Notes under the pieces: generated by a model
Databases searched by the model: none
Told to the model about the DNA's origin: nothing
Seen by the model: only the letters and a program-made list of their open reading frames with translations
Shown: piece after piece, positions 2,205 through 53,133 of the stretch
Layout of the letters: every line of letters starts with the position of its first letter
Numbering within the stretch: the first letter of the stretch is position 1
NCBI GenBank assembly: GCA_022750115.1
Contig: JAKIWI010000003.1
Location: 175,948 to 239,947 of the forward strand
Source of the DNA: Thermoplasmata archaeon
Lineage (GTDB): Archaea > Thermoplasmatota > Thermoplasmata > Lutacidiplasmatales > UBA184
DNA length: 64,000 bases
Reading direction: 5' to 3'
Made by a program: the position numbers and the translations under genes

Positions 2205-3221
2205 ATGGCGCGCCGGCCGGTGGAGGCGTCGTTCGAGGCGGCGCCGAACATCGCGCTCGTCAAGTACTGGGGGGTCCGGGACGAAGCGCTCGGGCTTCCC
2301 TACAACAGCTCGCTGTCGGTCACGCTCAACCGGCTGAGGACCCGGACGACGGTCCGCTTTGACCCGAAACTTTCCAGCGACCGGTTCCTCCTCGACGGCG
2401 AGGCGCAGTCGGGCGGTCCCCTCACGTCGGTCAGCGGCTTCCTCGACACCGTCCGGGCGATCGCGCGATTCGAGACCCACGCGCTCGTCCGCTCCACGAA
2501 CAACTTCCAGACGGCGAGCGGCCTCGCGAGCAGCGCGAGCGGGTTCGCCGCGCTCGCAGGAGCCGCCTCGCTCGCGGCCGGCCTCCATCTCTCGCCCGCC
2601 GACCTTTCGCGGCTCGCCCGGCTCGGGTCGGGCAGCGCCTCGCGCTCGCTGTTCGGTGGCTTCGTGGAGTGGCGCGCCGGGACGCGCTCCGATGGGCGGG
2701 ACTGCTTCGCTCGCCCGCTCCATCCGCCGTCGCACTGGCCGAGCCTCGTCGACCTGGTCGCGATCATCGCGGACGCGCCGACGAAGCCGGTCCGTTCGTC
2801 GGTGGCGATGCAACGGACCGTGGCGACGTCCCCGACCTACGCCCAACGGCAGCGCGAACTCCCGCGGAGACTGCGAGCGATGAAGCGGGCGATCGCCGTG
2901 CGAGACGCGCCGACGCTGTTCGACCTCACGATGGAGGAGTGCGATAGCTTCCGGAACGTCTGCGAGACGACCGTCCCGACGCTCGACTACCTCGTGCCGG
3001 CCTCGCGGGCGGTGCTCGCGGACGTGAGGGCCGCGAACGAGGAGAACGGTACGACGCTCGCGGGCTACACCCACGATGCGGGCGCGCACGTCCACGTGTT
3101 CACACTCCAACGTCACGCCGGAACGCTCCGGCGCCGTCTCGCCCGCATCCACGGGGTCGCGAAGGTGCTCGCACTCTCGCCGGGGCGCGGTGCCCGCCCG
3201 ATCCGCCGGTGGCGCGCCTAG
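2205..3221 (+). CDS. GHMP-kinase-family mevalonate (di)phosphate decarboxylase homolog (MVD/PMD/mevalonate-3-kinase family)
   Basis: N-terminal APNIALVKYWGVRDE and ATP-binding SGLASSASGFAALAGAAS motifs typical of diphosphomevalonate decarboxylase family; 338 aa. Confidence 0.8.
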   Translation: MARRPVEASFEAAPNIALVKYWGVRDEALGLPYNSSLSVTLNRLRTRTTVRFDPKLSSDRFLLDGEAQSGGPLTSVSGFLDTVRAIARFETHALVRSTNNFQTASGLASSASGFAALAGAASLAAGLHLSPADLSRLARLGSGSASRSLFGGFVEWRAGTRSDGRDCFARPLHPPSHWPSLVDLVAIIADAPTKPVRSSVAMQRTVATSPTYAQRQRELPRRLRAMKRAIAVRDAPTLFDLTMEECDSFRNVCETTVPTLDYLVPASRAVLADVRAANEENGTTLAGYTHDAGAHVHVFTLQRHAGTLRRRLARIHGVAKVLALSPGRGARPIRRWRA

Positions 3222-3691
3222 GCCGGCCGCCGCTTCGCCTTCTTGGAGGCGCCCTTCGACCCGCGCTTCTTCTTCTTCCCGCGCTTCGGGACCGTGTAGA
3301 CCTCGAGGACGATGTCGTCGGGGTCAACCCACGTCGCGCTGACGTAGCCCGGGGCGAACTCCGGGTGCTCCTCGGTGCGGAAGATCGGATAGAGCTCCGA
3401 CTTGGCGAGCCGGTCCTCGACGGCCTGCACGCGCTCCGCCGACTCGACGTGGAACGCGAGGTGCTCGGCGATAACCTCCTCCTCCCCGGTCGGGGCCCGT
3501 CGCTTGACGCGGGGCGAGCGTTCGTGGATCAGCCAGACGGTGAGGTCGCCGTCCGTGTAGGCGACGTACCCGGTGTCCTGGACGAACCGTCGGAACCCGA
3601 GCTCTCCGAAGAACCGGTCGTAGAACCACGTCGTTCGGGCGACGTCGCTGACCTCGAGGGAAACGTGACGGAGAGCGGCGGTGGGCGCCAT
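3218..3691 (-). CDS. VOC/glyoxalase-family protein with Lys-rich C-terminal tail
   Basis: HVSLEVSDVARTTWFYDRFFGELGF start is typical of glyoxalase/bleomycin-resistance fold; KRGKKKKRGSKGASKKAKRR tail. Confidence 0.55.
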   Translation of the reverse strand: MAPTAALRHVSLEVSDVARTTWFYDRFFGELGFRRFVQDTGYVAYTDGDLTVWLIHERSPRVKRRAPTGEEEVIAEHLAFHVESAERVQAVEDRLAKSELYPIFRTEEHPEFAPGYVSATWVDPDDIVLEVYTVPKRGKKKKRGSKGASKKAKRRPA

Positions 3692-3738
3692 CGCCCGGCA
3701 GACCCCCCGGGGCTCTTAACGGCGGAGCGCGGCCGCGT

Positions 3739-4035
3739 TCAGCCGAAGCAGTTCAAGAACAGTACGGCGAGCAGGAGAAGACCGGGGGCGTTGTTGGCGA
3801 GGTCCCCCGATGCCCCGGACTCGGCGATGACCCCGAGGATCTGGAGGAGGAGCGCGAGCCCGGCGAGGACGAGGAACAGCCGACGGCGCGCCGGCCCGAG
3901 GGGACGCGCGGCCGGGTCCCACCATCGCGAGGTCAGGACAACGATCGCGACGACGGGCGCGAGGACGACCGCGTCGAACGCGAACGGCAGGAGGAGTCCC
4001 TTGACGTCGATGAGGAACCCGACCAGGTAGACCAT
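3739..4035 (-). CDS. small hypothetical membrane protein (3 predicted TM segments)
   Basis: 98-aa ORF, strongly hydrophobic segments; no recognisable family. Confidence 0.35.
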   Translation of the reverse strand: MVYLVGFLIDVKGLLLPFAFDAVVLAPVVAIVVLTSRWWDPAARPLGPARRRLFLVLAGLALLLQILGVIAESGASGDLANNAPGLLLLAVLFLNCFG

Positions 4036-5018: not shown

Positions 5019-5801
5019 CTACCGGCCCTTAAAGCTCGGTTTCCGCTTTTCGACGAACGCGGCGAGACCTTCCTTCGCGTCCTCGGTGACGAACAGGCGG
5101 TTCTGCAGCTCGCGCTCGAGCGCGAGGCCGCCGGTGAGCGGGAGTTCGACGCCCTCGAGGACCGAGCGCTTGATCAGGCTCACCGCGCGCGAAGGCCCAT
5201 GTGCCAGGGCCACGGCGTACGCGTGGACGTCCTTGACGAACGATTCCTTGGGGTACACGTAGTTCACGAGGCCGATCTGGAGCGCCTCGTCGGGGGTGAT
5301 CAGCTTGCCGGTGATCATCATGTCGAGGGCGCGGGACGTCCCGATGAGGCGGGGCAGACGCTGCGTGCCGCCGGTGCCCGGGAGCACGCCGAGGGTGACC
5401 TCGGGAAGCCCGAGCTTTCCGGAGTCCTTCGCCATCATCCGCAGGTCGCAGGAGAGCGCGATCTCGAGCCCGCCACCGACCGTGTGGCCATTGAGGGCCG
5501 CGATGACGACCTTCGGGGTCTTCGCGAACTTGTCGAGCGTCTCCTGCCAGTAGAGGCAGAAGTTCGCCTTGAAGTTCGGCTCGCTCGCCTTGAGCATCTC
5601 GATGTCGGCGCCGGCGCTGAAGAATCCGGGGGTTCCGCTCGCCAGGATGAGGACCCGGGCGTTGTCGTCGAACCGGAGCTCCTCGATCGCCTGGTCGAGC
5701 TCCTGGCGCATCTCGTTGTCGTAGGTGTTCGCCTTGCCCTTCGCGATCTCGATGTAACCGACGTGGTCCTCAACGCGCGTCCGGATGTACTTGCCTTGCA
5801 T
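5019..5801 (-). CDS. enoyl-CoA hydratase/isomerase (crotonase family)
   Basis: GFFSAGADI oxyanion-hole motif and NGHTVGGGLEIALSCD second motif; 260 aa. Confidence 0.8.
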   Translation of the reverse strand: MQGKYIRTRVEDHVGYIEIAKGKANTYDNEMRQELDQAIEELRFDDNARVLILASGTPGFFSAGADIEMLKASEPNFKANFCLYWQETLDKFAKTPKVVIAALNGHTVGGGLEIALSCDLRMMAKDSGKLGLPEVTLGVLPGTGGTQRLPRLIGTSRALDMMITGKLITPDEALQIGLVNYVYPKESFVKDVHAYAVALAHGPSRAVSLIKRSVLEGVELPLTGGLALERELQNRLFVTEDAKEGLAAFVEKRKPSFKGR

Positions 5802-5879
5802 CGATGTCTCGCTCCGAGAGGGGTCGGGCCAACGGAGTGCCCGCGATAAAGCTGACGCGCGCGACGCGCACCCCCGAAC

Positions 5880-6587
5880 TCAGCGCGACCCGCGCGCCCG
5901 CCGCTCTTCGACGGAGCCGTCGGGTCGGCCGATCAGGACCGTATTCGCGAGGCCGACGAAGAGACCCGTCTCCACGACCCCCGGGAACCCGTGGAGCTCG
6001 GCGTCGAGGCGACCGGGGTCCTCGAGCACCCCGGACGGACGCACATCGAGCACTTCGAGCCCATTGTCGGTGCGGAACGTTCCCTTCCCGTCGGCGGCCG
6101 GCCGGACCGTTGCGGGGAGTCCGCGGCCGTTCAGTTCGGCGAGGAGCGAGTCTCGGGCGTACGGCACGACTTCGACCGGGATCGCCGAGCGGGACCCGAG
6201 GTGCTCCACGAGCTTGCTCGGGTCGACGATAACCAGGAACTGTTGCGAGCGTCGTGCCAGGTACTTTTCCCGGAACAGCGCCCCTCCACCACCCTTGGTC
6301 AGCGACAACGACGGGTCGACCTCGTCGGCGCCGTCAATCATGAGGTCGAAGCGATCTCCCGCGGCCAGCGCGCGGATTGGGACGTGGAGTTCCCGGGCGA
6401 GGGCCTCCGTCCGCTCCGAGCTGGCGACGCAGGTGAGGCCCCCTCCGTCCGGGAACCGGGCGGCGAGCGCGGAGACCGCGTGGGCAGCCGTGGTGCCCGT
6501 TCCGAGGGCGACGCGCATCCCGGGTTGAACCCGACCGACGGCCGCCCGGGCAGCGGCCGCCTTCTCCGCCTCGTGCGGGTCGACCAT
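5880..6587 (-). CDS. rpiA: ribose-5-phosphate isomerase A
   Basis: VALGTGTTAAH, DGADEVD, TKGGGGALFREK motifs; start taken at internal ATG (6587) rather than the long GC-extended ORF start at 6725. Confidence 0.8.
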   Translation of the reverse strand: MVDPHEAEKAAAARAAVGRVQPGMRVALGTGTTAAHAVSALAARFPDGGGLTCVASSERTEALARELHVPIRALAAGDRFDLMIDGADEVDPSLSLTKGGGGALFREKYLARRSQQFLVIVDPSKLVEHLGSRSAIPVEVVPYARDSLLAELNGRGLPATVRPAADGKGTFRTDNGLEVLDVRPSGVLEDPGRLDAELHGFPGVVETGLFVGLANTVLIGRPDGSVEERRARGSR

Positions 6588-6714
6588 CGGCCGGACGGGG
6601 GTGGAATGCCCTATAAGCGGTTCGTCGGCCGGAGGAGGCCAGCCGCCGACACCCCAGACGCGAACGAGAGTGCGGCGCCAAAGTTGAAGGGACTCCTCCG
6701 TGTGGGCCGCGACC

Positions 6715-7428
6715 ATGGGCGCCACCGACCAGCCGGGTCCTCGCCCGGTCGTACTGTCGGTCGGCGGCTCGGTGATCTTGAGCGCGGACAGCGCCTCCGA
6801 TGCCCCCTACCTCACTGAACTGGCCGACGTGCTCCGGGAGTTCGGGCGGACCACCCCGCTCGCGGTCACGACTGGCGGTGGCCGGATCGCCCGGGAGTAC
6901 ATCCGGCTCGGACGCTTGCTCGGCCTCACGGAAGTAGAGCTCGATGAGGTCGGGATCGCGGTGACGCGAATCCATGCGCGATTGCTCGCCGCGCGCATCG
7001 GCCCGCCGACTCCGCTCACCCCCGCCGTGACGACCGAACAGGCGGCCCATGAGCTCCACCGCGCCTCGCCGGTCGTCCTCGGCGGCACCGAACCCGGGCA
7101 CACCACCGACGGCGTCGCCGCGATGTTGGCGGTTCGACTAAGAGCGGCCCGGCTCGTTAACGCGACCAGCGTCGCCGGCCTTTACGACCACGACCCACGG
7201 ACCCATCCGGACGCGCAGCGGCGGGAGCGTCTCGGCTGGGAGGAGTTCCGGGCGATCGTCCACGAGTCGGCCGGAGAGCACGCCGGCCAGGAGTTCGTCT
7301 TCGACCGGTTCGGGGCCGACCAGCTCCGCCGCGCCGGCATCCCGCTCGCGATCGTGGACGGGCGCGATCTGCCGAACCTTCGGAAGGCGCTCGCGGGGAA
7401 GCCGTTCCTCGGCACTTCCGTCGAGTAA
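6715..7428 (+). CDS. pyrH: UMP kinase (archaeal type)
   Basis: VLSVGGSVI...TTGGGRIAREYI amino-acid-kinase fold motifs; ~237 aa; alternative GTG start at 6700. Confidence 0.8.
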   Translation: MGATDQPGPRPVVLSVGGSVILSADSASDAPYLTELADVLREFGRTTPLAVTTGGGRIAREYIRLGRLLGLTEVELDEVGIAVTRIHARLLAARIGPPTPLTPAVTTEQAAHELHRASPVVLGGTEPGHTTDGVAAMLAVRLRAARLVNATSVAGLYDHDPRTHPDAQRRERLGWEEFRAIVHESAGEHAGQEFVFDRFGADQLRRAGIPLAIVDGRDLPNLRKALAGKPFLGTSVE

Positions 7429-8174: not shown

Positions 8175-8280
8175 CCCGGCTTAGCTCAGTGGTAGAGCGG
8201 GGGACTGTAGTCAGGACCGTCGAAGTTCGGCGGCCCCCGTAGATATCCTCAGGTCGCCTGTTCGAGTCAGGCAGCCGGGA
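8175..8280 (+). tRNA. tRNA-Tyr(GTA) with ~34-nt intron after position 37
   Basis: Acceptor CCCGGCT/AGCCGGG, D-arm GCTC-AGTGGTA-GAGC, anticodon stem GGGGA/TCCTC with loop CTGTAG|intron|A, T-arm GCCTG-TTCGAGT-CAGGC; intron position canonical for archaeal BHB splicing. Confidence 0.7.
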
Positions 8281-10808: not shown

Positions 10809-10814
10809 TTTATA
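10809..10814 (+). promoter_or_regulatory. candidate archaeal TATA box (TTTATA) upstream of pilin-like gene
   Basis: Only AT-rich hexamer in GC-rich spacer, ~57 bp upstream of ATG 10871. Confidence 0.3.
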
Positions 10815-10870: not shown

Positions 10871-11803
10871 ATGGGGGTTCCATATGCTTCACTTCGTCGC
10901 CGGCGGTACCGCCGAAGGCTGCGGGGTAACCAGCGCGGCGTGGTCGCGGTCATCGGGACCCTCCTCGCGCTACTGGTATTCTTCGCGCTGTTCGGCGTGT
11001 TCCTCACCCAGTACCTTCCGCTGTGGATGAACGAGAACGAGGTCGCCTTCACGAACTCCGCGGAGGCGTCGTTCGCCGAGCTGAAGTCGAACATCGACCT
11101 CCAGACGGCGCTCGGCTCGCCCCCCGTGTTCCAGACGCCGTTCACGATGAACTCCCAGGGCGTCCCGCTCATCGCCCAGCCGACGATCGGCGTGCTGTCG
11201 TTCATCCCGTTCACCCCGGGCGTGTTCGCCAACGTCTCGATGAACCCGGGCCCGGGCAACAGCCACCTGTTCTGGCAGAACGTAACCCTCGGCACCGTCT
11301 CGATGTACCTGCCGAACCGGTACTTCACGCCCCAGATGTTCTCCTACGAGGACGACGCGGTCGTCCAGGAGCAGACGGACACCACCCAGATCCTCGCCTT
11401 CCCGCCGACGCTGACCGTCAACCAGACGGGCAACCAGATCGCCGTGACGATGTCGCTCGTCCAGCTCCTCGGGAACGCCTCCCAGGTGATCACGACCGGC
11501 ACCCAGCAGGTGTCGAGCCACTTCGTCTTCACCCAGACCTACGCGAGCAACGGCACGGGCCTCCCCGGCTCGCTGAACGCTTCGTTCGCGATCGGCACGC
11601 ACTACCCGTGCGCCTGGGCGTCGTACCTCAGCCAGACGCTCTCGCAGTCGAACATCGCCGCGAGCCACTTCGCGCTGACCCCCAGCACGTGCATCGCCTC
11701 CGGCGGGAACGTGGTTCCCGTTTCCCTCACGTTGACCGCCATCAGTTCGTTCACCCTCGTCTTCGCCGAGCTGAACATCGTCGCTGGCGTCGGGGTCGAA
11801 TGA
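10871..11803 (+). CDS. large type-IV-pilin-like protein with class III (prepilin) signal peptide, N-glycosylation-sequon rich
   Basis: N-terminus MGVPYASLRRRRYRRRLRGNQRG|VVAVIGTLLALLVFFALFGVFL: basic stretch, RG then hydrophobic helix = archaeal class III signal; >12 NxS/T sequons (NVS, NVT, NQT, NAS, NGT); first gene of pilus locus. Long GC-extended ORF (10190) rejected upstream of this ATG. Confidence 0.6.
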   Translation: MGVPYASLRRRRYRRRLRGNQRGVVAVIGTLLALLVFFALFGVFLTQYLPLWMNENEVAFTNSAEASFAELKSNIDLQTALGSPPVFQTPFTMNSQGVPLIAQPTIGVLSFIPFTPGVFANVSMNPGPGNSHLFWQNVTLGTVSMYLPNRYFTPQMFSYEDDAVVQEQTDTTQILAFPPTLTVNQTGNQIAVTMSLVQLLGNASQVITTGTQQVSSHFVFTQTYASNGTGLPGSLNASFAIGTHYPCAWASYLSQTLSQSNIAASHFALTPSTCIASGGNVVPVSLTLTAISSFTLVFAELNIVAGVGVE

Positions 11804-11813: not shown

Positions 11814-13472
11814 GTGAGCGCTGCGTCCTACCGGGTGAAAGTCCCGCGGGCGGCGCCCCGGGCCGCCGAGAACCCGCTCGCCGCCCCGCGGACCCAGGCC
11901 GAGGAGAGCCCGTCGTCCGAGCTTCCGGGGACGTTCATCACCGCGATGCCGGCGCTCGCGGACCGCGACATGCGCGAGCTCGAGGTGACGGCGGTCAACC
12001 CGCCGTACAGCTACGCGCGGATCAGCTACCACGAGCAGAAGAAGGAGTATCTGTACGAGGTCATCGAGCCCCAGCTCTCCCAGCACGAGCGCGAGCTCGT
12101 CACCCACCTGAAGGGGACGCTCACGCGGATCCTCGGCTCGGAGGTCGCCGACCTCTCGATCACCGACAAGCGCACCTACCTCCGGGGCGAGGTCGAGGGC
12201 TACCTCAAGAGCCGCCAGATCAGCCTCTCGCCGATCTCGACCGAGCGGGTCGTCTACTACATCGTCCGCGACTTCGTCGGCTACGGCCCGATCGACGCGC
12301 TGATCCTCGACATCCAGGTCGAGGACATCAGCTGCGACGGCGTCGGCGTGCCGCTGTTCATTTTCCACGGAAAATACGAGAGCGTGAAGACGAACGTCGT
12401 CTTCGACGACGAGGACCAGCTCAACTCGTTCATCGTCGCGCTCGGCCAGCGCTGCGGGAAGGCCGTCTCCGTCTCGAACCCGATTCTCGACGGCACGACG
12501 CCCGAGGGCCACCGGGTCCAGGCGACGTACGCCCGCGAGATCACCACGCGCGGCGCGAGCTTCACAATCCGGCGGTTCAAGGAGCGACCGTTCACGCCCG
12601 TCGACCTGGTCCTGACGGGGAGCGCGTCGGAGGAGATGATCGCCTACTTCTGGCTCGCCGCCGAGCAGGGCGAATCGCTGATCATCTGCGGCGGCCCCGC
12701 CGCCGGGAAGACGAGCACGCTCAACGCGATCGCGCTGTTCATCCCGCCGACGTCGAAGATCGTCTCGATCGAGGACACCCGCGAGGTGAACCTCCCGCAC
12801 GAGAACTGGATCCCCGGCGCGACGCGGAGCGGCACCGGCGACCGCGGCGCCGACGGGAAAGCCGCCGGAGAGGTCGACATGTTCGACCTCGTGCGCGCCG
12901 CGTTGCGGCAGCGCCCGAACTACATCATCGTCGGCGAGGTCCGCGGCCGCGAGACCTATACAATGTTCCAGGCGATGGCCACGGGCCACACGACCTACTC
13001 GACGATGCACGCGGACAGCGTGAAGTCGATGGTCAACCGCCTCGAGAACCCGCCGATCAACACGCCACGGATTCTCCTCTCGGCGCTCAATAACGTCATC
13101 ATCCAGGTCCAGGCGCGCACCGACAAGGGCGTGGTCCGCCGGTTGAAGCAGGTGCTCGAGATCGTCGGCTTCGAGCCCGAAACGAACGAGCTGATCACCA
13201 ACACGGTCTACGAGTGGGACCCCGGCACGGACAAGTTCGTGTTCAAGGGCCACTCGTTCCTGTTTGACAAGATCATGGAACTTCGGAACTTCACCCACGA
13301 CGAGATGGAGGCCGAGTTCCAGCGCCGCGTCGCCGTCGTGAACTACCTCGCGAAGAACAAGGTCAACGACTACCGCCAGCTCTGGAAGCTCGTCTCGGCC
13401 TACTACAAGGACCCGAAGGACGTCATGGCGCGCGTCGAGTCGAACGCGGTCATCGTGCCGGGGGCGGCGTAG
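11814..13472 (+). CDS. type IV filament assembly ATPase, FlaI/TadA/VirB11 superfamily (paralog 1)
   Basis: Walker A GGPAAGKTST, Walker B/Asp box, His box, ASFTIRRF and ENWIPGATRSG conserved blocks of archaeal FlaI/ArlI-like ATPases; 552 aa. Confidence 0.85.
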   Translation: MSAASYRVKVPRAAPRAAENPLAAPRTQAEESPSSELPGTFITAMPALADRDMRELEVTAVNPPYSYARISYHEQKKEYLYEVIEPQLSQHERELVTHLKGTLTRILGSEVADLSITDKRTYLRGEVEGYLKSRQISLSPISTERVVYYIVRDFVGYGPIDALILDIQVEDISCDGVGVPLFIFHGKYESVKTNVVFDDEDQLNSFIVALGQRCGKAVSVSNPILDGTTPEGHRVQATYAREITTRGASFTIRRFKERPFTPVDLVLTGSASEEMIAYFWLAAEQGESLIICGGPAAGKTSTLNAIALFIPPTSKIVSIEDTREVNLPHENWIPGATRSGTGDRGADGKAAGEVDMFDLVRAALRQRPNYIIVGEVRGRETYTMFQAMATGHTTYSTMHADSVKSMVNRLENPPINTPRILLSALNNVIIQVQARTDKGVVRRLKQVLEIVGFEPETNELITNTVYEWDPGTDKFVFKGHSFLFDKIMELRNFTHDEMEAEFQRRVAVVNYLAKNKVNDYRQLWKLVSAYYKDPKDVMARVESNAVIVPGAA

Positions 13473-14435
13473 ATGGCGATCGACCCGCGCCCGGTCGAGG
13501 TCGCCGCGGTCGAGGGGACCCGGACGATTCGCCTCAAGAAGGGCGAACAGCCGACCCATTCCCCCCTCACCCCGTTCGAGTCCTGGGCGTGGAAGACCTT
13601 CCGCGAGCGGGTGACGAACCGCCCACCCGACCCGCTCCTCGATGAGCAGCTCCTCAAGGCCCACATGCGGATCCGCGGCGACGAGTACCTCGCGAAGGTC
13701 TACGCGACGACCGTCGTCGCGGTGATCGCCCTCGCCGCCGTCGGCATCGTCCTCGCCGTCCTCCTCAGCACCGCGGGCCTCGCGTTCCTCGGCATCGGGC
13801 TCGCCATCGTGCTCCCCGTCCTCGGGGGAATCGGCTCGTTCTTCGCCCTCAAGGGTGCCCCGGGCGGCAAAGCGAAGTCGCGCGGCAAGGCGATCGACCG
13901 AAAGATCTCCTCGTCGATGAGCTTCGTCAGCGCGATGGCGTCGGCCGACGTCAACATCGACGCCATCTTCAAGGAGCTCGCGCGCCAGAAGATCTACGGG
14001 GAGGTCGCCGAAGAGGCGGCCTGGATCACCCGCGACACCGAGCTCCTCGGGCTCGACATCCTGACCGCGATCCGCAACGGCGCGACCCGCACGCCGTCGA
14101 AGCGGTTCCAGGACTTCCTGCAGGGCGTCGTCACGACCGCCACGAGCGGCGGCCAGCTGAAGCCCTACTTCCTCGCGAAGGCCGAGCAGTACGAGCGCGA
14201 GAACAAGCTCGAGCTCCTCCAGCGCGTCGAGACGATGGGTCTCCTCGCCGAGACGTTCGTGACCGTCGTCGTGGCGTTCCCCCTGTTCCTCGTGATCATC
14301 ATCGCCATCTTCGCGATCATCGGCGGCGGCGGGGCGTTCATGATCACCGTGCTCTACGGGATCATCCTCGGCATGATCCCGATGTCGCAGATCGGGTTCA
14401 TCTTTTTCATGTATTCGCTGGCGCAGGAGGCCTAG
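13473..14435 (+). CDS. half-size pilus platform membrane protein (TadB/TadC/FlaJ-like, T2SS-F domain), copy 1
   Basis: 320 aa, TM helices flanking a cytoplasmic T2SSF-like domain (SMSFVSAMASADVNIDAIFKELARQKIYGEVAEEAAWITRDTELLGLDILTAIRNGAT); start ATG abuts stop of ATPase 1. Confidence 0.7.
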   Translation: MAIDPRPVEVAAVEGTRTIRLKKGEQPTHSPLTPFESWAWKTFRERVTNRPPDPLLDEQLLKAHMRIRGDEYLAKVYATTVVAVIALAAVGIVLAVLLSTAGLAFLGIGLAIVLPVLGGIGSFFALKGAPGGKAKSRGKAIDRKISSSMSFVSAMASADVNIDAIFKELARQKIYGEVAEEAAWITRDTELLGLDILTAIRNGATRTPSKRFQDFLQGVVTTATSGGQLKPYFLAKAEQYERENKLELLQRVETMGLLAETFVTVVVAFPLFLVIIIAIFAIIGGGGAFMITVLYGIILGMIPMSQIGFIFFMYSLAQEA

Positions 14436-15394
14436 TGGCGACGGCGACGGTCCTCAAGCCCGCTCAGTTCGCGGACAAGCTGGGCGACGTCAGCGAAGAG
14501 GCGACGATCCCCAAGGAGACTCTCGTCCTCATCGTCGGGCTGATCGCCGGCATCGCCCTGATGGTCGTCGGCGCGATGGACTACCTCGGCGCGCTGAACG
14601 TCCAGGTCCGCCCCGGGGAAGGGGCTGGCACGAACCCCGCCCTCGACTTCCTCGTCCTCGGCATCTCCGCGATCTTCGGGCCGTACGGCTTCGTCATGAC
14701 GGCGAAGCTCCGGAGGATCCAGAAGATCGAGGAGCGCCTCCCCGACTTCCTCCGCGACGTCTCCGAGGCCGGGCGCTTCGGGATGACGCTCCCGGACGCC
14801 ATCATCGTCGCCTCGCGCGGACGCTACGGCCTCCTCACCGAGGAGATCAAGAAGATGGCGAGCCAGCTCGAGTGGGGCGTCCCGGTGGCCACGGCGCTCC
14901 GTCTCTTCGAGGAGCGCGTGCCCACGCCGCTCGTCAAGCGCGTCGTCTCGATCATCACCCGCGCGAACGAGGCGGGCGGGAACGTCGCCGACGTCCTGAC
15001 GATGGTCGCGCACGACACGCGGGAAGTGCAGCTCTCCTACCAGGCGCGCCAGATCTCGATGCTGACCTACGTGACGGTCATTTACATCTCGTTCTACGTC
15101 TTCCTCGTCACGATCTACATCATGGCGGCGGTGTTCCTGCCGCAAATGGTCGTCGCGGGCCAGGGGATTTCCTCGAGCAGCCTCGCCGGCGCCGGGGCCG
15201 TCAACCTCCAGTTCAGCTTCGTCCCGGTGCTGTTCATTGCCTTCATGCTCGCCGTCATCGTCCACGCCGTCGGCGACGGGATCATGGCGGGGGTGCTGTT
15301 CTCCGGACGCCTCAGCGAGGGGCTCCAGCACGCGACGATCATGCTGCTGTCGGGATGGGCGATCATGCGCTTCGTCGTCCCGCCGCTCTCCTAG
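14435..15394 (+). CDS. half-size pilus platform membrane protein (TadB/TadC/FlaJ-like, T2SS-F domain), copy 2
   Basis: 319 aa, GTG start overlapping preceding stop; T2SSF-like block LPDFLRDVSEAGRFGMTLPDAIIVASRGRYGLLTEEIKKMASQLEWGVPVATAL; TM helices at both ends. Confidence 0.7.
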   Translation: MATATVLKPAQFADKLGDVSEEATIPKETLVLIVGLIAGIALMVVGAMDYLGALNVQVRPGEGAGTNPALDFLVLGISAIFGPYGFVMTAKLRRIQKIEERLPDFLRDVSEAGRFGMTLPDAIIVASRGRYGLLTEEIKKMASQLEWGVPVATALRLFEERVPTPLVKRVVSIITRANEAGGNVADVLTMVAHDTREVQLSYQARQISMLTYVTVIYISFYVFLVTIYIMAAVFLPQMVVAGQGISSSSLAGAGAVNLQFSFVPVLFIAFMLAVIVHAVGDGIMAGVLFSGRLSEGLQHATIMLLSGWAIMRFVVPPLS

Positions 15395-15402: not shown

Positions 15403-17160
15403 ATGGCCAGCGAATCCGTGCAGCGAACGACCTCCGACGTACCGGGCCGCAAGGCCGCGCCGCGGCGGAAATCGACCGGGACGTTCTCCCCGTGGCTCAA
15501 GATCGGCGCCGCGCTTCGCAAGGGGACGAGCGAGCCGCGTCCGGTCAAGCTCGCGCGCCTCGGCGTCTCGGGCCAGGGGGCCGAGGGGCTCGTCACGCCG
15601 ATCCCCCCGCTCGACGACCCGGCGCTCCAGCTCCTCGAGCTCGACCCGATCCGGGAAGGGTTCTCCTACGTCCGCATCACGTTCCACAACCAGCGGAACG
15701 AGCACCTCTACGAGGTGATCGAGCCGCCGCTGTCCGAGATCGAGAAAGAGCTCCTCGAACGCCTCAAGGTCCTCCTCGTCGACCAGTTCGAGCCGCTCCC
15801 CGAGCTCGACATCGATACGAAGCGCCGCGAGCTCCGCCGGATGGTCGACGACCAGTTCCACGAGTGGGAGATCTCCCCGAGCCCGACGACGAAGGGACGG
15901 ATCATCTACTACCTCGAGCGCGAGTTCACCGGCTACGGCGTCGTCGACGCGCCGATGACCGACAGCGAGGTCGAGGACATCAGCTGCGACGGGGTCGGCA
16001 TCCCGCTCTACATCTACCACCGCAAGTACGGCTCGATCCGCTCGAACCTGAAGTTCGAGGATGCGCTCCGCCTCGACAGCTACGTCGTCTGGCTCGCGCA
16101 GCGTTCGGGCAAGCACATCTCCGTCGCGAACCCGATGCTCGACGCGACCGTCCCGGACGGCTCGCGTCTCCAGGCGACGCTCGGGATGCACGTCACGAAG
16201 CGCGGGAGCTCGTTCACGATCCGGCGCTTCCGCGACAACCCGTTCACGCCGGTCGACCTGCTGAAGTTCCGGACGATGAGCCCGGACATGATGGCCTACC
16301 TGTGGATCGCCATCGAAGCGGGCCAATCGATGATGGTCTGCGGGGGAACGGCGTCCGGCAAGACGACGACGCTCAACGCGACGCTCCTGTTCATCCCGCC
16401 CCAGATGAAGATCGTCTCGATCGAGGACACGCGGGAGCTCAACCTCCCCCACGAGAACTGGGTCCCGTCGCTCACGCGCGCCGGGTTCGGCGCGAAGAAC
16501 CTCGTCAGCGGGAAGGCCCCGGGCGAGATCGACATGTTCGACCTCCTCGCCGCGGCCCTCCGTCAGCGCCCGCAGTACCTGATGGTGGGGGAGGTGCGAG
16601 GTGCCGAGGCGTTCATCGTCTTCCAGGCGATGGCGACCGGCAAGACCTGCTACACGACGTTCCACGCCGAGAGCGTGAGCGCGATGGTCCACCGGATGGA
16701 GAACCCTCCGATCTCGCTCCCCCGCTCGCTCGTCTCGGCGCTGAACCTGGTGCTCCTCCAGCGCCAGGTGAAGGTCGGGAACAAGATGACCCGCCGCGTC
16801 CAGAGCCTCACCGAGATCGTCGGCCTCGACCCGGAGACGAACGAGCTGATCACCAACTCGGTCTACTCGTGGAACCCGGGCGACGACACGTTCCTCTTCT
16901 CGGGCCACTCCTACGTCTACGAGCGCGTCGCGATCGTGAAGAACCTCACGATGAAGGAGATGGAACGGGAGGTCCGCCAGCGCGTCGAGATCCTCGAGTA
17001 CCTGAAGTGGCTCGAGGCGCGCAGCACGCGCCAGAACCCGTTCACGCACCGCGAAGTAGGCCGGCTCGTCTCCTTCTACTACAAGGAGCCTCAGCAGGCG
17101 CTCGCCGAGGCCCGCGCCGCCGCCGCCTCCGGAAAACCGCCATCGAAGCCGGGCGCGTAG
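15403..17160 (+). CDS. type IV filament assembly ATPase, FlaI/TadA/VirB11 superfamily (paralog 2)
   Basis: Walker A GGTASGKTTT; same conserved blocks as paralog 1 (SSFTIRRF, ENWVPSLTRAG, MVGEVRGAEAF); start at ATG 15403 not the GC-extended ORF 14872. Confidence 0.85.
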   Translation: MASESVQRTTSDVPGRKAAPRRKSTGTFSPWLKIGAALRKGTSEPRPVKLARLGVSGQGAEGLVTPIPPLDDPALQLLELDPIREGFSYVRITFHNQRNEHLYEVIEPPLSEIEKELLERLKVLLVDQFEPLPELDIDTKRRELRRMVDDQFHEWEISPSPTTKGRIIYYLEREFTGYGVVDAPMTDSEVEDISCDGVGIPLYIYHRKYGSIRSNLKFEDALRLDSYVVWLAQRSGKHISVANPMLDATVPDGSRLQATLGMHVTKRGSSFTIRRFRDNPFTPVDLLKFRTMSPDMMAYLWIAIEAGQSMMVCGGTASGKTTTLNATLLFIPPQMKIVSIEDTRELNLPHENWVPSLTRAGFGAKNLVSGKAPGEIDMFDLLAAALRQRPQYLMVGEVRGAEAFIVFQAMATGKTCYTTFHAESVSAMVHRMENPPISLPRSLVSALNLVLLQRQVKVGNKMTRRVQSLTEIVGLDPETNELITNSVYSWNPGDDTFLFSGHSYVYERVAIVKNLTMKEMEREVRQRVEILEYLKWLEARSTRQNPFTHREVGRLVSFYYKEPQQALAEARAAAASGKPPSKPGA

Positions 17161-17203: not shown

Positions 17204-18280
17204 ATGCCGGGCCCGGTCCCGTTCGCGCGCCTCGTCGGCCCGAACGGCGCCCCCGTCGTCCTGTACGAGGCCGACTCGGTCCGGACGCTCCCGAAGCTCC
17301 TCGCGAAGGGATCGGTCGACTGCGTCGTCACCTCACCTCCGTACAACCGCAAGGTCGCCTACGGGAGCTACGACGACGACCGGCCGCGGGCCGAGTACCT
17401 CCGGTGGATCGGCACAGCCGCCGACTCGGTGCGGCGGGTCCTATCGCCCGCCGGGTCGTTCTTCCTCAACGTCGGCGGCTCTCCCACCGACCCGTGGCTC
17501 CCCTGGGATGTCGCCCGCGAGGTCGGCCGGCGCTTCGCGCTCCAGAACGTCGTGCACTGGGTGAAATCAATCGCCATCGACCGGGAGCTCGCGGGGAAGG
17601 ACGCCGGGCTCACGCGCGATCTTGCGGTCGGGCACTACAAGCCGCTCAACTCGAAGCGCTACCTGCACTCGGGCCACGAGTACGTCTTTCACTTCACCCA
17701 CCGCGGCGACGTCGAGCTCGACCGGCTCGCCGTCGGCGTCGCCTATCAGGACCCCTCGAACGTGGACCGGTGGCGCTCGAGCGGGTCGAACCGTCGCTGC
17801 CGGGGCAACACATGGTTCCTCCCGTACCGGACGATCCGCTTCCGCTCGAAGGACCGCCCGCATCCGGCGGCGTTCCCCGTCGAGTTGCCCGAGCGTTGCT
17901 TCCGATTGCACGGCGTCGGGCGCCTGCGCCTCGCCGTCGACCCGTTCGTCGGGATCGGCTCCTCCGCCGTCGCCGCGGTGCGGCTCGGGATCCCGTTCGT
18001 CGGCTTCGACGTCGACCCCGAGTACCTCGCCACAGCGGAGACCGCTCTGCGGGCGGCCGGCGCCATTGTCCCGCCGCCGACCCCTTCGACCGTCGGCGAA
18101 CGCCGCCGAAACCCGAGCCTTAAGTACGCCGGACCCGAGTTTCCCCTTGGAGCGACGTCGTCCGGATGGCAAGCCCCGCGCGAACCCGGCCGGGCCCGGA
18201 CTCCACCGGCCGCCAGCCGTCGTCCCCGGCCGAACGGGAAGCGCTCGACTACCTTGGCCGCGAGATCCGGCCAGTTCTGA
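17204..18280 (+). CDS. DNA methyltransferase, beta-class amino-MTase (N4-cytosine or N6-adenine), apparently orphan
   Basis: Motif IV SPPY (VVTSPPYN) precedes motif I FxGxG (DPFVGIGSS) = circularly permuted beta architecture; catalytic fold ends ~18080, remainder of ORF is low-complexity read-through. Confidence 0.75.
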   Translation: MPGPVPFARLVGPNGAPVVLYEADSVRTLPKLLAKGSVDCVVTSPPYNRKVAYGSYDDDRPRAEYLRWIGTAADSVRRVLSPAGSFFLNVGGSPTDPWLPWDVAREVGRRFALQNVVHWVKSIAIDRELAGKDAGLTRDLAVGHYKPLNSKRYLHSGHEYVFHFTHRGDVELDRLAVGVAYQDPSNVDRWRSSGSNRRCRGNTWFLPYRTIRFRSKDRPHPAAFPVELPERCFRLHGVGRLRLAVDPFVGIGSSAVAAVRLGIPFVGFDVDPEYLATAETALRAAGAIVPPPTPSTVGERRRNPSLKYAGPEFPLGATSSGWQAPREPGRARTPPAASRRPRPNGKRSTTLAARSGQF

Positions 18281-26342: not shown

Positions 26343-27917
26343 CTACCCGCCCATTCGTCGGTCGGACTTCCGTCGGCGGCCCTTCGCCGTGGCGGCTCCG
26401 GGCGCGGGCGATGCCGCCACCGGCCGCGGCGCGGGGAGCGGGTTCACCGGCTGACGGATCGTCTCCGAGGTTCCGATCCACCGGACGAGGAGCTCGACGC
26501 CGAGACGATTCGGGTCGGTCACGACCATCGTGCCTTCGAGCGTCCGGGTGATCTCCCTCGCCGCGGCCTCGTACTCCGGATGCTCGGACCGGATCAGGAT
26601 CAGGGAGAACTTCAGGGGACGAACGGTCGCGAGCTCGCGCGCGCGGCCGAGCGCGGCCTCCATCGCCATCGGGAGGTTGCCCGAGCGGACCGAGCCGTCC
26701 GAGTCGGTGTACGCCTCCGGCAGACCGTCGGTGACCAGGTACACCTCGCGCCGGGTCGCGCGCGAGGCGCGCAGGAGGAGGAACGCCGTGCGGAGCGCCT
26801 CCGCCGTGTTCGTGAACGCCCCGGGCGTGCACTCCCACAGCTCGACGAGGTCGAGCAGGTCGACGCGGTTGTCGAACGCGACGACGTCGATCGTGGCGTC
26901 GGGGTGCCGCCGGCGGATTGCCACGTAGAGCGCGAGCAGCGCCTTCTTCGCCGCCGGGAGCTTCTCTCCCTCGGCCATGCTGCCGGAGCGGTCGAACGCG
27001 AGCACGACGTGCACGCGCTCGCTCGTCACCTCCCGATAGACGTAGCTCGTCGATTCGTCGATGTGCCGCAGCCCGGCTTGGCGAGCCGCGAGGATCGAGC
27101 TGGGGAGATCCAGGTGGGCGATCTCCTCCGGTTGACGGAGCCGCGCCTTCTCGTAGACCCCGGTCGACGCACCGCCGGCGAGCGAGAGGCGCGCGTCGGC
27201 GGGGAGCTGGCGGGTCTCCTCCTCGAGCACGAGGCGGGCGAACCGCTCGACGAGGCCGTACGTGACGGCGAGGGTGCCGTCCTTCTCGGTCACGAACCCG
27301 CGCTCCTTCATCTCGCGCTCGAGACGGCGGGACTCGGCGTCGCGGACGCGACCCCGTTCCTCCTCCTCGGCCCTCCGGCGGGCTTCCTCCCGCTCGGCGG
27401 CGAGGGCGCGGCGCTGCTCCTCGGCTTGGCGGCGCTTCTCCTCCGCCTCGCGCCGGAGGTCGCGCTCGCGGGCGCTGAGGGTCTGGTCGACCCGTTCGGT
27501 GAGCTGCTGCCGTTCGTCCGGAGTCAACCGGGCGATCGCCTCCCCGAGGTCCGAGGAACCGATCGACCGACCGCCCTCCCCCAGACGGGCGAAGACCACC
27601 GACCGCGCGCCCCGAACTTTCGGGGCGCGGGTCGGCGTTCGGCCGAACAGCGACCGGAACCAAGCGATGAGGCGAGCGAACCACGCGCGCAGTCGTGCGA
27701 CGAACGAGGGCTTCTCCGGTTGCATCCACGGAGCGTCGGGGAGCAGAAGCGCGCTGCGGACATCGTCGACGAACCCGTCGTCGATCTTCGACCAGTCGAG
27801 CCCCCGGGCGCGGCGACGCCGATCCTCGGCGTTCGCGAGCTCCGCCGCCAGCTCCGCCTCGGTCCTTCGCCGGACCGTCTCGAGCTCGCCCTCGCGCCGG
27901 TCGTACTCGCCCATCAC
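26343..27917 (-). CDS. vWA-domain protein with N-terminal charged coiled-coil region
   Basis: C-terminal VLAFDRSGSM (DxSxS MIDAS) ... DATIDVVAFDNRVD ... TNTAEAL vWA motifs; Arg/Glu-rich helical N-terminus; chosen over overlapping frame 26230..27729. Confidence 0.7.
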   Translation of the reverse strand: MMGEYDRREGELETVRRRTEAELAAELANAEDRRRRARGLDWSKIDDGFVDDVRSALLLPDAPWMQPEKPSFVARLRAWFARLIAWFRSLFGRTPTRAPKVRGARSVVFARLGEGGRSIGSSDLGEAIARLTPDERQQLTERVDQTLSARERDLRREAEEKRRQAEEQRRALAAEREEARRRAEEEERGRVRDAESRRLEREMKERGFVTEKDGTLAVTYGLVERFARLVLEEETRQLPADARLSLAGGASTGVYEKARLRQPEEIAHLDLPSSILAARQAGLRHIDESTSYVYREVTSERVHVVLAFDRSGSMAEGEKLPAAKKALLALYVAIRRRHPDATIDVVAFDNRVDLLDLVELWECTPGAFTNTAEALRTAFLLLRASRATRREVYLVTDGLPEAYTDSDGSVRSGNLPMAMEAALGRARELATVRPLKFSLILIRSEHPEYEAAAREITRTLEGTMVVTDPNRLGVELLVRWIGTSETIRQPVNPLPAPRPVAASPAPGAATAKGRRRKSDRRMGG

Positions 27918-29831: not shown

Positions 29832-30551
29832 ATGGCCGAGAAGGAGGCCCAGCCGAAGAAGACGACGCTCGCCCGGACCGTCAAGGACAAGTGGCGGTCC
29901 AAGCACTGGTTCGTCGTCCGGGCGCCGTCGCTGTTCAACCACGCCGAGATCGGCGAGACGATGGCGAGCGAGCCCGAGCAGATCATCGGCCGGACGCTCG
30001 AGACCACCCTCCAAGAGATCACCGGCGGCGCCGACGTTGGCAAGGCGCACATCAAGCTCAAGTTCCAGATCGAGCGGGTCTCCGGGGAGAAGACCGCCGA
30101 GAGCCGATTCATCGGCCACGAACTCACGACCGATTACGTGCGGCGGCTCGCACGGAGGAAACGGTCCAAGATCGACACCTCGCTGATGGTGACGACGAAG
30201 GACGGGGTCCAGATCATCGTCAAGCCCGTCGCGGTCGGCGAGCAGCGCCTGCAGACACGCCTCCAGGCGGAGCTCCGCCTGCGCCTCCGCTCCCTCCTCA
30301 CCGAGGAGGCCGCGAAGAAGACCGGCGCCGAATTCGTGCGGGAGATGCTGGGCGGCGAGCTGGGCAAGATCCTCGCCCACGGCCTCAAGTCGCTCTATCC
30401 GCTCAAGAAGATCGAGATTCGTCGCTCCGTCGTGCTGGGGACCATCGAGGTCACCGCGCCCGGCGAGCTCGCTTCCGAGGCGGTCGGTGGCCCCACCCCC
30501 GAAGTCCCGATGGCGGTCGAGACGGCCCCGAGCACGCCCGCGGACGCTTGA
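29832..30551 (+). CDS. rps3ae: 30S ribosomal protein S3Ae (eS1)
   Basis: KDKWRSKHWFVVRAPSLFNHAEIGET N-terminus and overall ~240-aa length characteristic of eS1. Confidence 0.85.
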   Translation: MAEKEAQPKKTTLARTVKDKWRSKHWFVVRAPSLFNHAEIGETMASEPEQIIGRTLETTLQEITGGADVGKAHIKLKFQIERVSGEKTAESRFIGHELTTDYVRRLARRKRSKIDTSLMVTTKDGVQIIVKPVAVGEQRLQTRLQAELRLRLRSLLTEEAAKKTGAEFVREMLGGELGKILAHGLKSLYPLKKIEIRRSVVLGTIEVTAPGELASEAVGGPTPEVPMAVETAPSTPADA

Positions 30552-30597: not shown

Positions 30598-30699
30598 GTC
30601 GGGGTGGCTCAGCCTGGTAGAGCACGGGACTCATAGCGGGACGGCCACGCCGTTCCGGGAGAGATCCTGGGGCCGGGGGTTCAAATCCCCCCCCCGACA
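30598..30699 (+). tRNA. tRNA-Met(CAT) with ~28-nt intron after position 37
   Basis: Acceptor GTCGGGG/CCCCGAC, D-arm GCTC-AGCCTGGTA-GAGC, anticodon stem CGGGA/TCCTG, loop CTCATA|intron|A, T-arm GGGGG-TTCAAAT-CCCCC. Confidence 0.7.
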
Positions 30700-38106: not shown

Positions 38107-38280
38107 GAGCGGCCTCGGGAGAGGCCCGAGTCGCAACCGGACCGAGGTATCGCGAGCCGTATCGCGGCTAAGGTTGAAGAGCGGCAGCCCTGTGCGCCGG
38201 CACGGTGGCCTGGCCCACCCCTACGGGGGGTGGTCCGGTACGCCATACGGACCGGGGACTCGGGGGCGCGCGCAGTGTCG

Positions 38281-51878: not shown

Positions 51879-51903
51879 GCCGAGGCCTTCCGACGTGGTT
51901 CCC

Positions 51904-53106: not shown

Positions 53107-53133
53107 TCCGTTTTTTCCTCCTCGGGGAGTTTC

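Follow-up and report, generated by a model that had tools for sequence, protein, structure and literature searches.

The window analysed here, a stretch of 64,000 nucleotides with a GC content of 69.5%, contains among its open reading frames (ORFs) a cluster arranged in the order pilin-like gene, FlaI-like ATPase 1, platform gene A, platform gene B and FlaI-like ATPase 2 (Table 1). The archaeal host named in the preliminary description was confirmed by the presence of a gene coding for ribosomal protein S3Ae (positions 29832-30551) and of two tRNAs of 102-106 nt, which were matched by Rfam with no match from ARAGORN and were read as putatively intron-bearing. The host is an archaeon from an uncultured soil lineage of the Thermoplasmata, represented by a metagenome-assembled genome (MAG). 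A TATA-box-like hexamer upstream of the cluster, AT-rich within this GC-rich window, is a candidate archaeal promoter; the scan for sigma-70 promoters and terminators was uninformative for an archaeal host.

Table 1. Features of the pilus gene cluster; positions refer to the window.
Feature	Position	Strand	Product size	Remarks
TTTATA, TATA-box-like hexamer	10809..10814	+		Read from sequence; about 57 nt 5' of the first cluster gene
Pilin-like protein	10871..11803	+	310 aa	ATG at 10871; class III (prepilin) signal ...RRLRGNQRG / VVAVIGTLLALLVFFALFG
ATPase 1, FlaI/afGspE-type secretion ATPase	11814..13472	+	552 aa	Walker A GGPAAGKT and Walker B IIVGEVR intact
A, platform N-half	13473..14435	+	320 aa	ATG start; stop TAG 14433-14435; CdiPFa homologue
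AGGAGG, Shine-Dalgarno-like	14425..14430	+		Overlaps the final codons of A; 4 nt separate it from the start GTG of B
B, platform C-half	14435..15394	+	319 aa	GTG start 14435-14437; CdiPFb homologue, TadB-like
ATPase 2	15403..17160	+	585 aa	Paralogue of ATPase 1; Walker A GGTASGKT and Walker B LMVGEVR intact
N6/N4-type DNA methyltransferase	17204..18280	+	358 aa	Pfam N6_N4_Mtase 113.8 bits

Each platform gene product carries a single Pfam T2SSF domain (PF00482, gathering threshold 25.2 bits), which spans residues 152-276 of A (53.6 bits, E=2.7e-14) and residues 105-230 of B (66.9 bits, E=2.2e-18). According to hydropathy analysis and an AlphaFold model, A consists of a cytoplasmic N-terminus, a transmembrane (TM) hairpin, the T2SSF helical domain and a second TM hairpin, and B of a short cytoplasmic N-terminus, two TM helices, the T2SSF helical domain and three further TM helices. 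These results agree with the preliminary description of two genes of about 320 codons, each with one T2SSF domain and TM helices on both sides. Since searching A and B against PDB chains by sequence returned nothing useful, with one chance match at E=0.27, structures were compared by means of the AlphaFold model. The modelled cytoplasmic domains superimposed on those of OutF, EpsF and PilC with target-normalised TM-scores of 0.63-0.79 and Foldseek probabilities of 0.97-1.0. A conserved glycine pair tips each bundle of the CpaG/CpaH heterodimer modelled on CpaF (PMC11300603), and a glycine pair is present in both halves here (TSGGQ in A, EAGGN in B). The genomic context is also that of this superfamily, with ATPases on both sides of A/B and, upstream, a gene whose product carries a class III signal. 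A and B are members of the T2SSF / PilC-GspF-FlaJ-TadBC platform superfamily.

The alignment with full-length platforms identified A as an N-half, corresponding to residues 5-244 of the 555 of FlaJ and 12-249 of the 484 of UpsF, and B as a C-half, corresponding to residues 315-536 and 285-456 of the same proteins. Fused platforms (FlaJ/ArlJ, AapF, UpsF and PilC3-type) align colinearly with A+B through both repeats but consist of one polypeptide, and the A/B junction maps to their variable linker of 20-60 aa. P0247 (39% identical) and P0250 (35%), two relatives that occur naturally in fused form and are about 620 aa long, each gave one alignment across the junction, P0247 being colinear over query residues 53-630; at their loci they adjoin a FlaI-type ATPase and pilin-like genes, as the platform genes do here. 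When A and B were artificially fused, AlphaFold2 returned a model with pLDDT 89.7 and pTM 0.86, in which disorder was confined to residues 1-20 and to residues 325-332, the latter being the junction.

The two flanking ATPases share 51% identity. ATPase 1 matched the Pfam families T2SSE (109 bits) and PilB3_C (38.7 bits) and scored 407 bits with the NCBIfam FlaI model, below its cut-off of 550. The best PDB match was 2OAP, afGspE, for both ATPase 1 (421 bits, with FlaI at 284 and CpaF at 155) and ATPase 2 (416 bits, with FlaI at 296 and CpaF at 134). By sequence similarity both ATPases are of the afGspE/PilB3 type, as in the euryarchaeal Clade 2. The order pilin-like gene, ATPase, A, B, ATPase, methyltransferase was found in every related locus examined and in locus L082, which is about 43% identical. 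ATPase 2 was kept at the same position in all related loci reaching it, in L082 and in Aciduliprofundum.

The pilin-like gene was the sole clear class III candidate adjoining the locus in a motif search, and its product matched Pfam DUF7289 weakly (20.6 bits, under the cut-off of 27). It was retained at the same position with 38-79% identity in all related loci reaching that far, and also in L082 and L081. As position, size (310 aa versus 305 aa in Aciduliprofundum) and class III signal agree, this gene is probably the counterpart of arCOG02911, the predicted pilin of Clade 2. At the other end of the cluster, the N6/N4 methyltransferase, which gave weak NCBIfam matches only, to adenine methyltransferase models, occurred at the same position with 57-76% identity in all related loci long enough and in L082, and is a conserved downstream neighbour of the pilus cluster. 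The window ORFs scanned yielded neither a short major pilin nor a prepilin peptidase; the lack of a short pilin fits the situation in Cuniculiplasma divulgatum, where the genes for the major pilins are about 500 kb away from those of the machinery operon (PMC12448462).

A closely related organisation has been described in this latter organism, which produces CdiP pili from a machinery operon containing cdiPFa/cdiPFb and two ATPases (ISME J 2025, PMC12448462). A showed 34% identity with CdiPFa over 286 aa (E=2e-43), residues 33-315 aligning with 37-315 of 322, colinear to both ends, and B showed 35% identity with CdiPFb over 227 aa (E=6e-39), the CdiP reference sequences having been machine-read from a supplementary figure and thus possibly containing errors. 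In both systems an N-half gene and a C-half gene are separated at the equivalent position, two ATPases are present, FlaI/AapE-like in the CdiP operon, and the host belongs to the Thermoplasmata. The two systems differ in that identity is only about one third, the window host is an uncultured, high-GC soil lineage, and the window cluster has the conserved 310-aa pilin-like gene and the methyltransferase.

The same layout was catalogued earlier within Clade 2, defined by the arCOG01817 ATPase, the arCOG01808 TadC and the arCOG02911 pilin (Makarova 2016, PMC4858521). According to that survey, two tadC-like genes occur in many Clade 2 euryarchaea and in Thermoproteales clade 4B, two distinct ATPases can occur in one locus, and the locus of Aciduliprofundum sp. 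MAR08-339 / A. boonei was placed in Clade 2 and not in the Epd Clade 1. The Aciduliprofundum genes are listed in the order arCOG02911 (305 aa), FlaI (545 aa), TadC (332 aa), TadC (290 aa) and FlaI (550 aa) (Table S4, PMC4858521); compared by published order and sizes, the window has the same five-gene order with products of 310, 552, 320, 319 and 585 aa, and differs in having the downstream methyltransferase.

We then considered the junction between A and B, where the one-nucleotide TAG/GTG overlap was found as described beforehand. The frame of B is open from position 13646, and insertion of one base before 14433 would generate a continuous ORF of 639 codons, so that a frameshift was not excludable from the window sequence alone and comparative data were needed. 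In 78 related Thermoplasmata loci, from species-representative genomes of different MAGs and studies, A always ended at a stop codon. Across the related loci this codon was TAG in 38, TAA in 25 and TGA in 16; the start of B fell between -1 and +7 nt relative to the end of A, and all three relative frames occurred, including 19 loci in which A and B share the same frame and the stop codon is their sole separator. Within the clade, identity is 65-100% for both halves, and the start codon and MAT... N-terminus of B are conserved. More than 1,600 homologues of A were present in the database, with lengths of 315-338 aa among the 120 matches listed, and more than 1,700 of B, mostly of 318-334 aa among the matches listed, with two shorter or partial ones of 280 and 292 aa; nearly all of the 120 matches listed for each half had a single T2SSF domain. 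The cassette of two FlaI paralogues and a split platform was recovered in 80 loci of species-representative soil Thermoplasmata genomes.

As the start of B lies on or just after the stop of A and a Shine-Dalgarno-like motif lies in the last codons of A, the two genes are probably translationally coupled; of 79 related loci, 73 have a Shine-Dalgarno-like tetramer in the 18 nt that precede the B start. The same bases of AGGAGG encode a conserved Gln-Glu of A, which makes constraint at the protein and RNA level inseparable, and their conservation may reflect protein-level constraint alone. In C. divulgatum the two platform halves are transcribed at about 2:1 (PMC12448462), which argues against strict 1:1 coupling in that organism. 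A programmed frameshift or readthrough yielding a fused protein was also considered and rejected, as species differ freely in the stop codon used and in the relative frame of the two genes.

The comparative data decide against an artificial split of one FlaJ-like gene of about 640 aa, whether by a frameshift introduced in sequencing or assembly or by a pseudogenising mutation of recent date. The single base that would join the two frames and the existence of natural fused relatives speak for such an event, but it would have to account for the same two-gene structure in 78 independent loci with varied stops, spacing and frames, for the conserved beginning of B, and for the same split in cultured Cuniculiplasma and Aciduliprofundum; we consider its probability negligible, and A and B to be genuinely two genes that are translated separately, the point on which the preliminary description had been cautious. 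It is also very improbable that A/B represents the FlaJ/ArlJ of an archaellum, the archaeal swimming motor, even if JGI labels many homologues 'archaeal flagellar protein FlaJ' and, within NCBIfam, ArlJ/FlaJ ranks highest for the platform halves as FlaI does for the ATPases. The scores are far under the equivalog cut-offs (76 versus 550 for A, about 405 versus 550 for the ATPases), the cluster has no archaellin, FlaF/G, FlaH or FlaC/D/E genes, and the homologous system of C. divulgatum is an adhesive pilus in non-motile cells (PMC12448462).

A further alternative is that the locus belongs to an Epd-like lineage ancestral to bacterial Tad and represents a direct archaeal state of TadB+TadC. In Methanococcus maripaludis, EpdJ and EpdK are half-size platform paralogues, both essential for piliation (PMC4371748), whose genes are co-regulated with the ATPase EpdL (PMC4371748; PMC6668835), and archaeal split platforms were the basis on which the origin of Tad from Epd was argued (Denise et al. 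2019, PMC6668835). A and B share with Epd-like systems and with Tad/Cpa the two contiguous genes with one T2SSF domain each, of about 320 aa in TadB+TadC (CpaG+CpaH), but in its details the locus is not the Tad configuration proposed in the preliminary description. B, in addition, is TadB-like by sequence: its tblastn matches fell in the gene at the TadB position, the first T2SSF gene after cpaF, in 4/4 Tad loci, its HMM scores were 38-57 bits against TadB and 26-32 bits against TadC, and the C-half profile gave hhalign scores of 114 and 81, respectively. For A, neither HMM nor profile-profile comparison separated TadC from TadB, the N-half profile scoring 50.0 with TadB and 48.3 with TadC in a comparison covering four proteobacterial Tad loci. 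TadB and TadC each matched the family of C-halves better than that of N-halves, and they are more alike (hhalign 116) than A and B are (59). The correspondence of TadC with the N-half, published for archaeal platforms with two domains (Denise 2019), was not reproduced for the A/B family.

Other features depart from Epd or from Tad. Epd has one FlaI-type ATPase, a FlaH-like secondary ATPase and short pilins, and belongs to the fast-evolving Clade 1, whereas the window encodes a pair of FlaI paralogues whose affinities are afGspE-like (Clade 2); no FlaH/KaiC-like (arCOG04148) or TadZ-like secondary ATPase follows A/B, the position being occupied by the second FlaI paralogue and then the methyltransferase. 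The adjoining class III candidate, with 310 aa, is not a short pilin, and no other was found near the locus. Tad has one CpaF/TadA ATPase together with TadZ, secretin and Flp pilins, all present in the reference Tad locus L086, but neither TadZ/CpaE, nor the secretin RcpA/CpaC, nor an Flp pilin was found among the window ORFs scanned. The window ATPases are far nearer to A. fulgidus GspE (415-421 bits) and FlaI (284-296) than to CpaF (134-155), and the PilB3_C domain of ATPase 1 is a Clade 2 feature. The gene order is also reversed, the C-half-like TadB coming first in Tad and the TadB-like gene second in the window. With the Aciduliprofundum locus of the same order being assigned to Clade 2, and with A showing no preference for TadC, we regard an Epd/Tad placement as improbable.

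The structure of the genes, their domains, the conserved split, the synteny and the homology with CdiPFa/CdiPFb point instead, with high confidence on our part, to A/B being the split membrane platform of a type IV pilus machine of the archaeal Clade 2/CdiP type, the split being real and of long standing. The PilC/FlaJ fold is internally duplicated; its first repeat is provided by A and its second by B, and each consists of a TM hairpin, then a cytoplasmic T2SSF bundle of six helices, then more TM helices. As the break falls in the poorly conserved inter-repeat linker, predicted to be cytoplasmic, each half could insert in the membrane independently. Consistent with the single-chain model of the artificial fusion, A and B, whose synthesis would be coupled through their abutting stop and start and the Shine-Dalgarno-like motif, may pair into a heterodimer equal to one full-length platform. 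This complex would dock below a hexameric FlaI/afGspE-type ATPase, whose ATP-driven movements would be transmitted to pilins, so that these are raised out of the membrane and added to the filament. A pilus function in the uncultured host is suggested by homology.

The preliminary description had presented a split platform as unusual in an archaeon and as newly informative for the origin of Tad. Such platforms were already known from EpdJ/EpdK, Clade 2, Thermoproteales clade 4B and Cuniculiplasma, and Denise et al. 2019 had already built on the split state (PMC6668835); both split archaeal platforms and their bearing on TadB/TadC origin have been in the literature since 2014-2019, and the split platform with two ATPases was catalogued in 2016 (Aciduliprofundum) and studied experimentally in 2025 (Cuniculiplasma). 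As the same layout has been published for related archaea, the A/B locus is an ordinary new example. To this knowledge the present analysis adds three modest points, the conservation of the cassette across the 80 soil Thermoplasmata loci with a tightly abutting stop/start junction, the mapping of the break to the disordered inter-repeat linker, and the observation that the TadC/N-half correspondence is not reproduced in this family.

The biological question raised by the cluster is the role of the second ATPase, which in the CdiP system was termed enigmatic (PMC12448462). Two paralogous ATPases flank the platform genes, and the cassette might encode a machine with two motors, each engaging the A/B heterodimer differently, for example for extension and retraction, or for pilus assembly and another substrate such as DNA. 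PilT is not known from archaea. We consider this idea unlikely on present data; if true, it would give archaeal type IV pilus systems their first example of a dedicated second motor.

The two loci with fused platforms examined here (L081 and L083) have a single ATPase, as opposed to the two of the window, but the split state and the presence of two ATPases are not strictly linked, since L084 combines a split platform with a single ATPase, in a comparison of four loci only. The L081 ATPase is 48% identical to ATPase 1 and to ATPase 2 alike, and similarity favours neither as its orthologue. In a neighbour-joining tree of C-halves, calculated without support values, split and fused forms interleaved, with P0247 and P0250 placed among the split forms. 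A weaker reading of this pattern is that fission and fusion of the platform may have been recurrent, in which case having the split state in common would say little in favour of an Epd-Tad ancestry.

The platform of the type IV pilus machine is encoded by two half-size genes, ORF A and ORF B, and reading of the sequence showed that they overlap by a single nucleotide, shared by the TAG stop of A and the GTG start of B. Exactly one Pfam T2SSF domain was detected in each ORF, with scores of 53.6 bits for A and 66.9 bits for B (gathering threshold 25.2 bits); coordinates and Pfam results thus confirmed the two separate single-domain genes of the preliminary description. Alignment of the halves to FlaJ, which it had advised, identified A as the N-half and B as the C-half: with the NCBIfam models, A aligned to the N-terminal half of ArlJ/FlaJ (5-244 of 555) and UpsF (12-249 of 484), and B to the C-terminal halves of FlaJ (315-536 of 555) and UpsF (285-456 of 484). 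Similarity between A and B themselves is weak (28% over 121 aa, E=4e-4), a picture that fits the two repeats of ancient origin within a PilC/FlaJ-type protein.

Coordinates of the features discussed, as positions in the window
Feature	Position	Strand	Remarks
tRNA gene	8175-8280	+	Rfam, 106 nt
TATA-like TTTATA	10809-10814	+	read from the sequence
Pilin-like gene, 310 aa	10871-11803	+	class III signal ...RG|VVAVIGTLLALLVFF
ATPase 1	11814-13472	+	upstream of A; PilB3_C domain (Pfam)
ORF A, 320 aa	13473-14435	+	ATG start; TAG stop at 14433-14435
SD-like AGGAGG	14425-14430		upstream of B start
ORF B, 319 aa	14435-15394	+	GTG at 14435-14437
ATPase 2	15403-17160	+	downstream of B
N6/N4 methyltransferase	17204-18280	+	43 nt 3' of ATPase 2
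ORF, 177 aa	19021-19554	+	no Pfam family matched
ORF, 486 aa	19551-21011	+	no Pfam family matched; many hydrophobic segments
vWA-domain protein	26343-27917	-	
AAA+ ATPase	28147-29697	-	PrkA/MoxR/Mg-chelatase-like
Ribosomal protein S3Ae	29832-30551	+	
tRNA gene	30598-30699	+	Rfam, 102 nt
Very long ORF, ~1,300 aa	about 34210-38100	+	N-terminal signal-like hydrophobic segment
1,044-aa protein	38230-41364	+	weak InlB B-repeat match
Family-2 glycosyltransferase, 690 aa	41420-43492	+	
Phosphate-uptake cluster	48480-54282	-	PhoU, ABC ATPase, two permeases, PBP-like binding protein, second PhoU-domain protein

The host is an archaeon, since identical proteins are deposited under 'MAG: Thermoplasmata archaeon', ribosomal protein S3Ae is encoded in the window and two tRNA genes of 106 and 102 nt, recognized by Rfam (54.9 and 56.7 bits respectively) and not detected by ARAGORN, are read as intron-bearing. 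Their length suggests introns in both genes, as is typical for archaea.

The frame of B is open from 13646, and one base inserted before 14433 would yield a single 639-codon ORF, as if a frameshift error had artificially divided one FlaJ-like gene. The window sequence alone cannot decide between such an error and a real split, and the comparative evidence was decisive. For each half, over 1,600 homologues are present in the databases; among the best 120 matches per half, nearly all are 315-338 aa long and carry one T2SSF domain, with 71-100% identity and from many independent metagenomes. A scan of species-representative genomes returned 277 related stretches, and the DNA was read for the best 80 loci. 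In 78 of them the reading frame of A closes with a stop and B starts nearby at a conserved ATGGCG...; the outliers L037 and L042 are only apparent, keeping the usual stop/ATG junction and bearing assembly indels farther downstream. Across 79 loci the stop codon of A was TAG in 38, TAA in 25 and TGA in 16, and the start codon of B was ATG in 72, GTG in 6 and TTG in one. B begins -1 to +7 nt after A, each of the three relative frames is represented, and in 19 loci A and B share the same frame with a stop codon alone between them. A frameshift error could not generate such varied stops, spacings and frames, nor the same-frame loci. The frameshift at the junction (14433-14437), for which the preliminary description had recommended a check, is therefore refuted by comparison with the related loci, whose sequences show that the split is real. 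An SD-like tetramer was present within 18 nt of the B start in 73 of 79 loci, including AGGAGG in the window, which suggests translational coupling of A and B; the same bases also encode conserved residues of A.

The cluster is tight and all its genes lie on the same strand, with intergenic distances of 10, 0, -1, 8 and 43 nt from the pilin-like gene to the methyltransferase. All 80 related loci keep this six-gene order over the part that their contigs cover, and L082, a relative of about 43% identity, keeps it together with the upstream ACT-domain gene. ATPase 1 and ATPase 2 are paralogues (about 50-51% identical, 543 bits) with intact Walker motifs. The nearest solved structure to both was A. 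fulgidus GspE (2OAP; 421 and 416 bits), followed by S. acidocaldarius FlaI (284-296 bits), with the Tad ATPase CpaF far lower (134-155 bits). They are closer to one another than to their positional counterparts in L082 (48% and 420 bits for ATPase 1 against 2308-3852; 44% and 382 bits for ATPase 2 against 5681-7144), and positional orthology still holds; their likeness could stem from gene conversion within the pair or from fast evolution along the L082 lineage. That the ATPases around the split platform make up a two-motor machine appears unlikely; in a small sample of other loci, L084 showed a split platform with a single ATPase.

The methyltransferase follows ATPase 2 in all related loci whose sequence extends that far (57-76% identity), as well as in L082 (7263-8195), and is absent from the Aciduliprofundum locus. 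It scored far under every NCBIfam methyltransferase equivalog cut-off; it may be tied to the pilus machine, for example in DNA uptake, or may just share a conserved neighbourhood.

An artificial A+B concatenation was searched against 1.84 billion representative proteins. Natural full-length relatives were colinear across the junction, among them P0247 (622 aa, 39% identity, query 53-630) and P0250 (620 aa, 35% identity), and the 150 best matches included many full-length proteins as well as many short ones of the N-type and of the C-type. Alignment with 79 full-length relatives placed the A/B boundary in a variable, hydrophilic linker that joins the final TM helix of repeat 1 to the initial one of repeat 2. 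The AlphaFold2 model of the fusion on that alignment was a confident single assembly (pLDDT 89.7, pTM 0.86), disordered only at residues 1-20 and 325-332, the latter being the junction, and superposition of its cytoplasmic bundles on the domains of OutF, EpsF and PilC gave target TM-scores of 0.63-0.79. A glycine pair occurs at corresponding places in A (TSGGQ) and B (EAGGN); in the CpaG/CpaH heterodimer modelled on CpaF, the ATPase contact is a glycine pair at each bundle tip (PMC11300603). Based on the colinear relatives, the linker position and the predicted assembly, the best-supported mechanism is that A and B would enter the membrane separately, form a heterodimer that corresponds to a single FlaJ/PilC protein and, presumably docked on the ATPase, transmit its movements to pilin insertion.

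Split platforms are already known in archaea. The preliminary description had regarded this one as exceptional and newly informative, and it is neither, the Epd, Aciduliprofundum and Cuniculiplasma splits having been published. In Methanococcus maripaludis the two PilC paralogues EpdJ and EpdK are each essential for piliation, and they were likened explicitly to TadB/TadC (PMC4371748). Denise et al. (2019) inferred a fission prior to archaea-to-bacteria transfer on the basis of archaeal split loci (PMC6668835); this hypothesis, which the preliminary description invoked, was already built on such loci. Makarova et al. (2016) reported two tadC-like genes for many euryarchaea of Clade 2 and described Aciduliprofundum with two distinct ATPases in one locus, listed as arCOG02911 pilin (305 aa), FlaI ATPase (545), TadC (332), TadC (290) and FlaI ATPase (550) (PMC4858521, Table S4), with gene order identical to the window and sizes nearly so. 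The machinery of the Cuniculiplasma divulgatum CdiP pilus, whose operon has split platform genes and two ATPases, was examined in 2025; its platform halves are transcribed at about 2:1, twitching was not seen and the second ATPase was termed enigmatic (PMC12448462). Using the CdiPFa and CdiPFb sequences printed in its supplement, machine-read from the figure, A (33-315) aligned to CdiPFa (37-315 of 322) with 34% identity over 286 aa (E=2e-43), and B to CdiPFb with 35% identity over 227 aa (E=6e-39); the match to AapF was weak. These alignments make the locus a homologue of this experimentally studied system, both being divided at the equivalent point. The same paper described the occurrence of two ATPases within an operon for archaeal pili as unique; the 2016 census had the arrangement in two Aciduliprofundum genomes, and here it was found in 80 loci of species-representative Thermoplasmata genomes (the best 80 read of 277 stretches).

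The Tad comparison covered four proteobacterial plasmid loci (L086-L089). In each of them the best bacterial matches of B fell in the TadB/CpaG position, which is that of the first T2SSF gene to follow cpaF, and the C-half profile scored 38-57 bits with TadB vs 26-32 with TadC (114 vs 81 in profile-profile comparison by hhalign). These positions and scores indicate that the correspondence of B to TadB holds, in agreement with Denise et al. With the same four loci, the N-half profile gave 50.0 for TadB and 48.3 for TadC, so that TadC is nearer the C-half family (81) than the N-half family (48.3), TadB scoring 114 vs 50.0; the resemblance of TadB to TadC (116) exceeded that of A-type to B-type (59). 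The identity of TadC with the N-half was thus not reproduced for the Thermoplasmata family with only four proteobacterial loci compared, and a simple fission scenario deriving TadC from the N-half and TadB from the C-half sits awkwardly with profile scores measured against this family. The claim of a Tad configuration stands as regards the real split and the likeness of B to TadB; against it are the lack of N-half preference for TadC, the gene order, N-half then C-half in the window whereas Tad has the TadB-like gene first, and the accessory genes TadZ, secretin and Flp, present in the L086 reference locus and not found among the scanned ORFs of the window. The locus would work like a TadB/TadC pair, yet by the testable features it is placed outside the Tad and Epd-like lineage, and appears to belong to the Clade 2/CdiP type (Clade 2 being the euryarchaeal group of Makarova et al.), not the Epd/Tad type.

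Elsewhere in the window, the vWA and AAA+ genes adjoin that of S3Ae. The same trio lies in L082 (8637-12677) less than 500 bp 3' of the methyltransferase, and about 8 kb (18.3-26.3 kb) separate them in the window; vWA and MoxR-type ATPases are listed as T4P-associated modules (PMC4858521). The two overlapping ORFs of 177 and 486 aa occupy part of the stretch that L082 lacks between its methyltransferase and vWA genes, and base composition around them is not anomalous (GC 0.67-0.71). The three genes from the very long ORF to the glycosyltransferase may form a surface-protein and glycosylation cluster.
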